From the IMG/VR virus record IMGVR_UViG_2541047436_000009: 4,968 nt of DNA, one strand, 5' to 3'. The notes under the pieces were generated by a model. It was given only the letters and a program-made list of their open reading frames with translations. It did not search any database and was not told where the DNA came from. Origin of the DNA: a virus. Lineage: Duplodnaviria > Heunggongvirae > Uroviricota > Caudoviricetes. A program made the position numbers and the translations under genes. Below are positions 3,574-3,641 of the stretch, piece after piece. How positions within the stretch are numbered: position 1 is the stretch's first letter; each line of letters opens with the position of its first letter.

Positions 3574-3638
3574 TAGGCAATGCCTACTCTCGAAGCGTTA
3601 GGCATAGCCTATTGACAATTGCATTAGGCTAAGCCTAA
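3574..3638. promoter_or_regulatory. OR-like operator array between racR and ydaS: TAGGC-AAT-GCCTA (3574..3586), TAGGC-ATA-GCCTA (3599..3611), TTAGGC-TAA-GCCTAA (3624..3638)
   Basis: Three dyad-symmetric 13-15 bp sites centred at 3580, 3605 and 3631 (25-26 bp spacing), seen directly. They overlap the -35, spacer and -10 of the rightward promoter. This matches a lambda OR1-3 style architecture; assigning RacR as the binding protein is inference. Confidence 0.6.
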
Positions 3639-3641
3639 TAT
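3612..3641 (+). promoter_or_regulatory. PR-like rightward promoter for ydaS-ydaT-ydaU: -35 TTGACA (3612..3617), 18-bp spacer, -10 TAATAT (3636..3641)
   Basis: Consensus -35 and a good -10 on the plus strand, about 28 nt upstream of the ydaS ATG. The third operator palindrome covers the spacer and -10. Confidence 0.55.

Follow-up and report, generated by a model that had tools for sequence, protein, structure and literature searches.

The window, by which we mean the whole 4,968-nucleotide stretch of DNA that was analysed, is by sequence comparison a mosaic Rac-type prophage, and at full length (1-4968) its best match among complete E. coli genomes reaches 94% identity over 79% coverage. At positions 3500-3700 the sequence is that of E. 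coli O157:H7 strains, ATCC 43894 among them, with 100% identity; these strains have the locus annotated as racR, an HTH protein and a YdaT-family protein. The same positions are conserved with at least 99% identity in 268 complete E. coli genomes, while K-12 and this allele are 89.6% identical over the same positions. The RacR protein encoded here is identical to WP_000948454.1, which carries the RefSeq name RacR, and shares 145 of its 158 residues with K-12 RacR. At E ≤ 0.01 a Pfam scan placed RacR in no family and gave no sign of an S24 peptidase domain, and a PDB sequence search returned no relevant solved structure; the C-terminal domain has been described as oligomerising and unlike the LexA/S24 type (PMC11014345). 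Beyond the racR stop codon there is a hairpin on the minus strand (3031-3054, arms ACGGGAA...TTCCCGT) that scores no better than shuffled sequences (z = -0.59) and has no T-run after it; in K-12 each arm is one base shorter, with pairing kept.

On the other side of the intergenic region, ydaS starts at ATG 3669, which is preceded by GGAG at 3657-3660 and agrees with the RefSeq annotation of the identical O157 locus. With this start the racR-ydaS intergenic region measures 124 bp (3545-3668), not the 104 bp given by an earlier reading made from the sequence alone (hereafter the sequence-only reading), and the only start codon that would fit ~104 bp, an in-frame GTG at 3648, would fall at about the transcription start. 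The ydaS gene of this allele overlaps ydaT by 17 nt, while the K-12 gene encodes 98 residues and is separated from ydaT by a 22-nt gap, and the C-terminal tails of YdaS differ between the two alleles. Coordinates of all features are collected in Table 1.

Table 1. Genes, promoters and dyad-symmetric sites of the racR-ydaS region, in window coordinates.
Feature	Position	Strand	Description
racR (repressor, 158 aa)	3068-3544	-	N-terminal HTH; RefSeq name
ydaS (Cro-like HTH, 107 aa)	3669-3992	+	Pfam YdaS_toxin 3.8e-30, P22_Cro 1e-8
ydaT (CII-like regulator)	3976-4401	+	Pfam YdaT_toxin 2.6e-10; PMC11879457
YdaT-box	3969-3986		ATGATTCATGAAAATCAA; spans ydaT start codon (3976); identical to experimentally defined K-12 box (PMC11879457)
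Probable RacR operator, site 1	3574-3586		TAGGCAATGCCTA; perfect TAGGC-N3-GCCTA; centre +36 from racR ATG
Probable RacR operator, site 2	3599-3611		TAGGCATAGCCTA; perfect TAGGC-N3-GCCTA; centre +61
Probable RacR operator, site 3	3625-3637		TAGGCTAAGCCTA; perfect TAGGC-N3-GCCTA; centre +87
Degenerate fourth operator	3538-3550		TAAGCATTGCTTA; 2 mismatches; centred on racR start codon
Isolated half-site GCCTAA	3521-3526		within racR coding sequence
PydaST (PR-like) promoter	3612-3641	+	TTGACA 3612-3617; 18-bp spacer; TAATAT 3636-3641
PracR3 counterpart (leaderless racR promoter)	3553-3580	-	-10 GAGACT 3558-3553; 16-bp spacer
Candidate OL-like operator, racR-proximal	2960-2972		TAGGCTACGCCTA; perfect; adjoins leftward -35
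Candidate OL-like operator, distal	2935-2947		TAGGAAATGCCTA; 1 mismatch; over spacer and start of -10
Candidate PL-like promoter	2931-2959	-	TTGACA 2959-2954; 17-bp spacer; TATAGT 2936-2931

Using the pattern TAGGCNNNGCCTA with up to two mismatches allowed, we searched the whole window for dyads and obtained seven matches against 1.21 expected, a number that 0 of 200 shuffles reached. Three perfect copies lie between racR and ydaS with start-to-start spacings of 25 and 26 bp, and the claim of the sequence-only reading that three dyads with identical half-sites recur at this spacing was confirmed both by reading the sequence and by the pattern search. Each of the three is flanked on its left by GC(A/G)T. 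The fourth, degenerate copy has the racR start codon (CAT, 3542-3544) as its N3 centre and is the 'O3' of Wisniewska 2022 (PMC9638921). Together, the three perfect matches and the one match with two mismatches occupy positions homologous to those in K-12, with one operator over the ydaST promoter (site 3) and one over the racR start codon (3538-3550), and the isolated GCCTAA half-site within racR has likewise already been recorded for K-12 (PMC5700373, PMC9638921). In the left half-site of the fourth copy a G-to-A change keeps codon 2 of racR as Leu (CTT), where a perfect half-site would give Pro (CCT). A different perfect 5-N3-5 palindrome, ATGCG-CAT-CGCAT, occurs at 3561-3573 between the start-codon site and site 1, and is probably fortuitous because its K-12 counterpart (ATGCGCATTACAT) is not palindromic.

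A promoter scan of 3400-3800 returned PydaST as the sole sigma-70-like site, with 10 of 12 matches. The rightward TTGACA-18-TAATAT promoter put forward by the sequence-only reading is thereby recovered, and its hexamers are the same as those of the mapped K-12 promoter, where primer extension assigned a single ydaS start site to TTGACA/TAATAT and mutation of the -10 abolished promoter activity (PMC9638921). The dyads sit on this promoter less fully than had been proposed, as they were said to cover the -35, the spacer and the -10. With its last base at 3611, site 2 adjoins the -35 but does not overlap it, whereas site 3 does lie on the spacer, over 11 of its 18 bases, but reaches only the first two bases of the -10 (four if the flanking AT is counted). 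Site 1 is placed 26-38 bp upstream of the ydaS -35 and overlaps TTGCCT (3580-3575), the presumed -35 of the counterpart of PracR3, whose -10 was assigned from the K-12 box GAGAAT (PMC9638921).

The sequence-only reading had found no good leftward -10 for racR and suggested a weak or an activated promoter. Weakness agrees with K-12, where three weak racR promoters have been mapped and the strongest, with the GAGAAT -10, is leaderless (PMC9638921), but activation by RacR at a PRM-like site does not, and no RacR-activated racR promoter is known in the K-12 literature. The known activation of racR comes from YdaT, through a PRE-like promoter that lies in reverse orientation within ydaS (PMC11879457). 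At the PracR4 -35 (minus strand, 3786-3791, inside ydaS) this allele has CTGACG where K-12 has TTGACG, and the YdaT-activated PRE-like promoter may be weaker here.

We assessed whether the repeats could arise by chance by counting, in the 124-bp intergenic region, the copies of any single 5-N3-5 palindrome, with no half-site fixed beforehand. Three copies were obtained in 0 of 20,000 mononucleotide shuffles and in 0 of 20,000 Markov-1 simulations, the maximum being two, and chance or low complexity is excluded by these shuffles and simulations. This also bears on the proposal that the palindromes are nucleic-acid structures, such as a terminator or attenuator hairpin or a cruciform, or else chance repeats, which we regard as extremely unlikely. 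A terminator scan does flag 3623-3639, where a stem is followed by a T-rich tail, but this stem lies at the -10, ahead of the point where ydaS transcription begins, and would therefore be missing from the mRNA; a terminator at this position was rejected. Furthermore, the half-sites keep one fixed sequence with none of the complementary pair changes that a stem would permit, and no compensatory double changes that keep pairing were seen in the related loci.

The protein that reads these dyads is known from K-12 Rac. In the intergenic region of K-12, 123 bp long, Krishnamurthi 2017 recognised three variants of a GCCTAA/TTAGGC repeat, on which RacR formed three complexes in EMSA, was enriched by ChIP and repressed a reporter, while a 49-bp fragment with one repeat gave a single RacR complex (PMC5700373). 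DNase I footprints of K-12 RacR cover the repeats and yielded the motif ATTAGGC, the operators being named (T/A)TAGGC-n3-GCCTA(T/A) with one of them centred on the racR ATG; the lowest RacR concentration already protected the ydaST promoter, whereas protection of the racR promoter region required higher ones (PMC9638921). Four RacR operators have been recognised in all, and RacR was an octamer by size exclusion (PMC11014345, PMC11879457). The TAGGC half-site that the sequence-only reading assigned to the repressor or to the Cro-like YdaS matches these K-12 footprints and this motif (PMC9638921). The half-sites and both promoter hexamers of K-12 are identical here save for one base of site 1, and we consider it very probable that the three dyads are RacR operators in the immunity region of a Rac-type lambdoid prophage, in its O157:H7-type allele. 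RacR binding, repression of PydaST and repression of its own promoters at higher concentration were shown for K-12, and from the shared sequence we infer that they transfer to this allele.

Another candidate reader is YdaS. Its Cro/HTH_3 fold is recovered by Pfam, K-12 YdaS is a genetic autorepressor of PydaST (PMC11879457), and its HTH aligns with that of RacR with 41% identity over 29 aa (E = 2e-6), the two proteins having the helix V-PPS-[IV]-x-x-WIK in common. Because this recognition helix is common to RacR and YdaS, YdaS most likely reads the same half-sites, and as a Cro-like protein it would do so in the switch proposed below. That the dyads are mainly YdaS operators, with RacR repressing through some other contact, is nevertheless improbable: in K-12, purified RacR needs no partner to shift and footprint precisely these repeats (PMC5700373, PMC9638921), the one-repeat fragment forms its single complex with RacR (PMC5700373), and dyads of the same kind also border a leftward promoter ~600 bp off, beyond the other end of racR, an arrangement that suits the master repressor. 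In the K-12 literature YdaS does not repress racR, hence it is no simple copy of Cro acting on all sites, and we found no YdaS footprint on Rac DNA in the Rac literature.

YdaT, the CII-like regulator, was also weighed, as K-12 YdaT protects ~100 bp across the ydaS promoter, including the -35, the -10, the ribosome-binding site and the first ydaS codons (PMC11879457). RacR is therefore not the sole protein on ydaS promoter DNA, YdaT binding there too in K-12 (PMC11879457). However, the YdaT motif, ATGATT-N6-AATCAA, is unlike TAGGC-N3-GCCTA and is present unchanged at 3969-3986, and the authors of PMC11879457 found no YdaT palindrome in the intergenic region. A reading in which YdaT is the main protein on the dyads is thus even less credible than the one built on YdaS, and we retain RacR as their principal reader.

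We compared the locus with related ones in a set of 24 loci, all of which were retrieved via similarity to RacR, including the recognition-helix peptide IHDWIKKG. Seven distinct Rac-type variants showed one variable column out of 40 in the half-sites against 33 out of 72 in the centres and linkers (Fisher p = 3e-7), a distribution which indicates that purifying selection acts on the half-sites only. The N3 centres vary freely (TAA, GTC, ATA, CAC, GAC), the site 2 half-sites for example being invariant in the seven variants around a centre triplet of ATA, CAC or GAC, and both promoter hexamers are invariant. The sole variable half-site position is 3582, where this allele has G and the six other Rac-type variants have C or A; site 1 is consequently perfect only in this O157-type variant among the seven; one locus (L019) differs at 3582 yet encodes an identical RacR. 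A YdaS-like protein is encoded by the divergent gene in 14 of 16 RacR loci, the ORF finder having called none in the remaining two (L008, L010). Since the loci were picked via RacR and YdaS is its constant partner, a search for loci with swapped partners has no power here, and conservation of the sites cannot separate RacR from YdaS as their reader.

The positions of the sites are conserved as well as their sequence. Centres at 0, +36, +61 and +87 from the racR ATG are fixed in all Rac-type loci of E. coli and E. ruysiae, and Escherichia phage vB_EcoS-683R6 has the same four. Other loci carry three dyads, at 0, ~+35 and ~+60, in which a -35 TTGAC adjoins the dyad at ~+35 and the -10 lies under the one at ~+60. 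These three-dyad loci include Mixta, Proteus, Klebsiella (including phage KpF5) and a MAG, with RacR proteins 58-64% identical over their full length, while in Achromobacter and a Nitrosomonas MAG the match to RacR is confined to residues 1-77 or 1-93 (69-78% identical). Judged by eye, with no alignment, their linkers are little like the Rac-type linkers. Because the other loci keep their dyads at 0, ~+35 and ~+60, the Rac type resembles the three-site type enlarged by a single 26-bp unit, and RacR-type switches come in three-site and four-site forms.

The site at centre 0, over the start codon, is present in every RacR locus examined, including Pseudomonas phages, whose repressors (283-286 aa) share only the N-terminal domain of RacR and which have TTAGGCAATGCTTA over the start codon. 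In these phages the helix reads PPSIQGWVKNG, and the sites drift mildly (AAGGC/ACCTT-type) with the start-codon site kept; this pairing of a changed recognition helix with a mild drift of the half-sites is suggestive. The N-terminal HTH of RacR is found fused to much longer C-terminal parts in the Pseudomonas phages and in Achromobacter (proteins of 362-366 aa), and the loci with long RacR proteins (L011, L013, L020-L022) keep both the start-codon operator and the YdaS-like divergent gene.

The dyad search also located a second cluster on the far side of racR, ~100 bp beyond its stop codon, in which two dyads 25 bp apart accompany a leftward promoter with 11 of 12 matches. The distal dyad covers 11 spacer bases and two bases of the -10, and the left module as a whole is a mirror image of the ydaS promoter module. 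The promoter faces a DUF1391 gene (2830-2597) and the early-left genes. The pair is kept at the same distance in K-12, E. ruysiae, Mixta, Proteus and a MAG, and in Mixta and Proteus the left -10 is TAATAT, the same as the right-hand -10. In K-12, depletion of RacR raises ydaG, ydaF, kilR, ydaE, racC and ralA 40-70-fold (PMC6765115, PMC11014345), and a candidate OL/PL analogue formed by the left pair and its promoter would agree with this derepression of the early-left genes. In the literature searched, outside of which lay older subscription-journal papers, we found no OL/PL or sbcA-type operator for Rac; the left pair with its promoter is possibly the only new element at the locus, and older literature may describe it. 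A small palindrome, ACCTAATAGGT, lies at 2987-2997, its centre 26 bp away from the racR-proximal dyad. Every Rac-type variant keeps it amid varying flanks, and Mixta, Proteus and the MAG lack it; its half-sites face outwards, so it is not a standard dyad, and it might serve as a third element of the left cluster or be bound by another factor.

Taken together, these features suggest how the switch might operate. RacR dimers would read the 5-bp TAGGC (extended, A/T-TAGGC) via the recognition helix PPSIHDWIKKG. Sites 2 and 3 enclose the -35 between them and extend over the spacer into the -10, so that RacR bound there would shut out RNA polymerase and leave ydaS and ydaT silent. Site 1 and the weaker start-codon site overlap the weak leaderless racR promoter, the latter covering its +1/ATG, and they would fill at higher RacR concentrations and produce negative autoregulation. 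The mirror two-site module at 2935-2972 would do the same on the leftward PL-like promoter. The centre-to-centre distance of 25-26 bp corresponds to ~2.4 helical turns and is compatible with cooperative dimer pairs, the operators of lambda being spaced by 23-24 bp. We further propose, tentatively and with a little less than even confidence, that the 2935-2972 dyads and their mirror promoter are a functional OL/PL, and that octameric RacR bridges them to the four right-hand sites over ~0.6 kb, looping out racR. If this is true, repression of the kilR-recET early-left operon would be tied to that of ydaST through the loop, and the O157-type allele, with its perfect site 1 and weaker racR -10 boxes, would set an autoregulatory level unlike that of K-12.

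The core of the sequence-only reading is supported, being right in substance, but the RacR operators, the ydaS promoter and the analogy with lambda are already known and published for the K-12 orthologue. The value of the right-hand sites as a discovery is therefore small, a published and footprinted K-12 feature having been rediscovered correctly; what the present analysis contributes is that the published set of sites transfers cleanly to the O157:H7-type allele, and that there is comparative evidence for a second, OL/PL-like operator, which would explain the derepression of the entire early-left operon (kilR, recET, ralRA) upon loss of RacR.

K-12 Rac is the nearest of the known systems, as it is the same locus with orthologous racR, ydaS and ydaT and with operator centres at 0, +36, +61 and +87. 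The alleles differ in the N3 centres, with TAA against GTC at site 3 and ATA against CAC at site 2, and in site 1, which has one mismatch in K-12 and is perfect in this allele. Likewise, the K-12 racR -10 boxes GAGAAT and AGTAAG are replaced by GAGACT and TTCGAG, counterparts which by their sequence would be weaker. The perfect site 1, the altered racR -10 boxes and the CTGACG -35 of PracR4 together suggest tighter autorepression and a lower racR output than in K-12.

Comparison with lambda upholds the description of the locus as a lambda-like switch but not as the tripartite one of the sequence-only reading, in view of the fourth site at 3538-3550 and the OL-like pair. As in lambda, the repressor gene and a cro-like gene diverge, and several dyad operators ~25 bp apart lie over a strong rightward promoter; the repressor mRNA is leaderless and the repressor, judging from K-12 RacR, octameric. 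A candidate second operator cluster also lies on a leftward promoter beyond the repressor gene, in a layout conserved across genera, and in K-12 a CII-like activator, YdaT, drives a reverse promoter inside the cro-like gene, ydaS. Against this, the locus has four right-hand and two left-hand sites rather than three and three, and so departs from the lambda plan, in which every cluster holds exactly three operators and PRM is switched on from OR2. The operators have a 13-bp core with 5-bp half-sites and not 17 bp, one of them sits on a start codon, and the left and right clusters are ~0.6 kb apart as opposed to 2.3 kb in lambda. RacR furthermore has no self-cleaving C-terminal domain of the LexA/S24 type in the Pfam scan, and YdaS, in K-12, does not repress racR.

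In phages 434 and P22 the repressor and Cro share homologous HTH motifs and operators. The HTH motifs of RacR and YdaS can be aligned and have nearly the same recognition helix, as do those of 434 cI and Cro, and by this analogy operator use shared between RacR and YdaS in the manner of 434 is a lead only. Another related system is the O157:H7 prophage CP-933P (PaaR2/YdaS/YdaT), which has YdaS and YdaT as partners, a leaderless repressor gene, an octameric repressor, four equally spaced inverted repeats between the repressor gene and ydaS, and an identified PL/OL (PMC8630535). It differs from the present locus in that its repressor belongs to the PaaR2 family and has a toxin-antitoxin pair downstream, in that its repeats are 18-bp palindromes with the consensus GTTTAGTAA, and in that its YdaS, unlike that of Rac, does repress the PRM-like promoter (PMC8630535).
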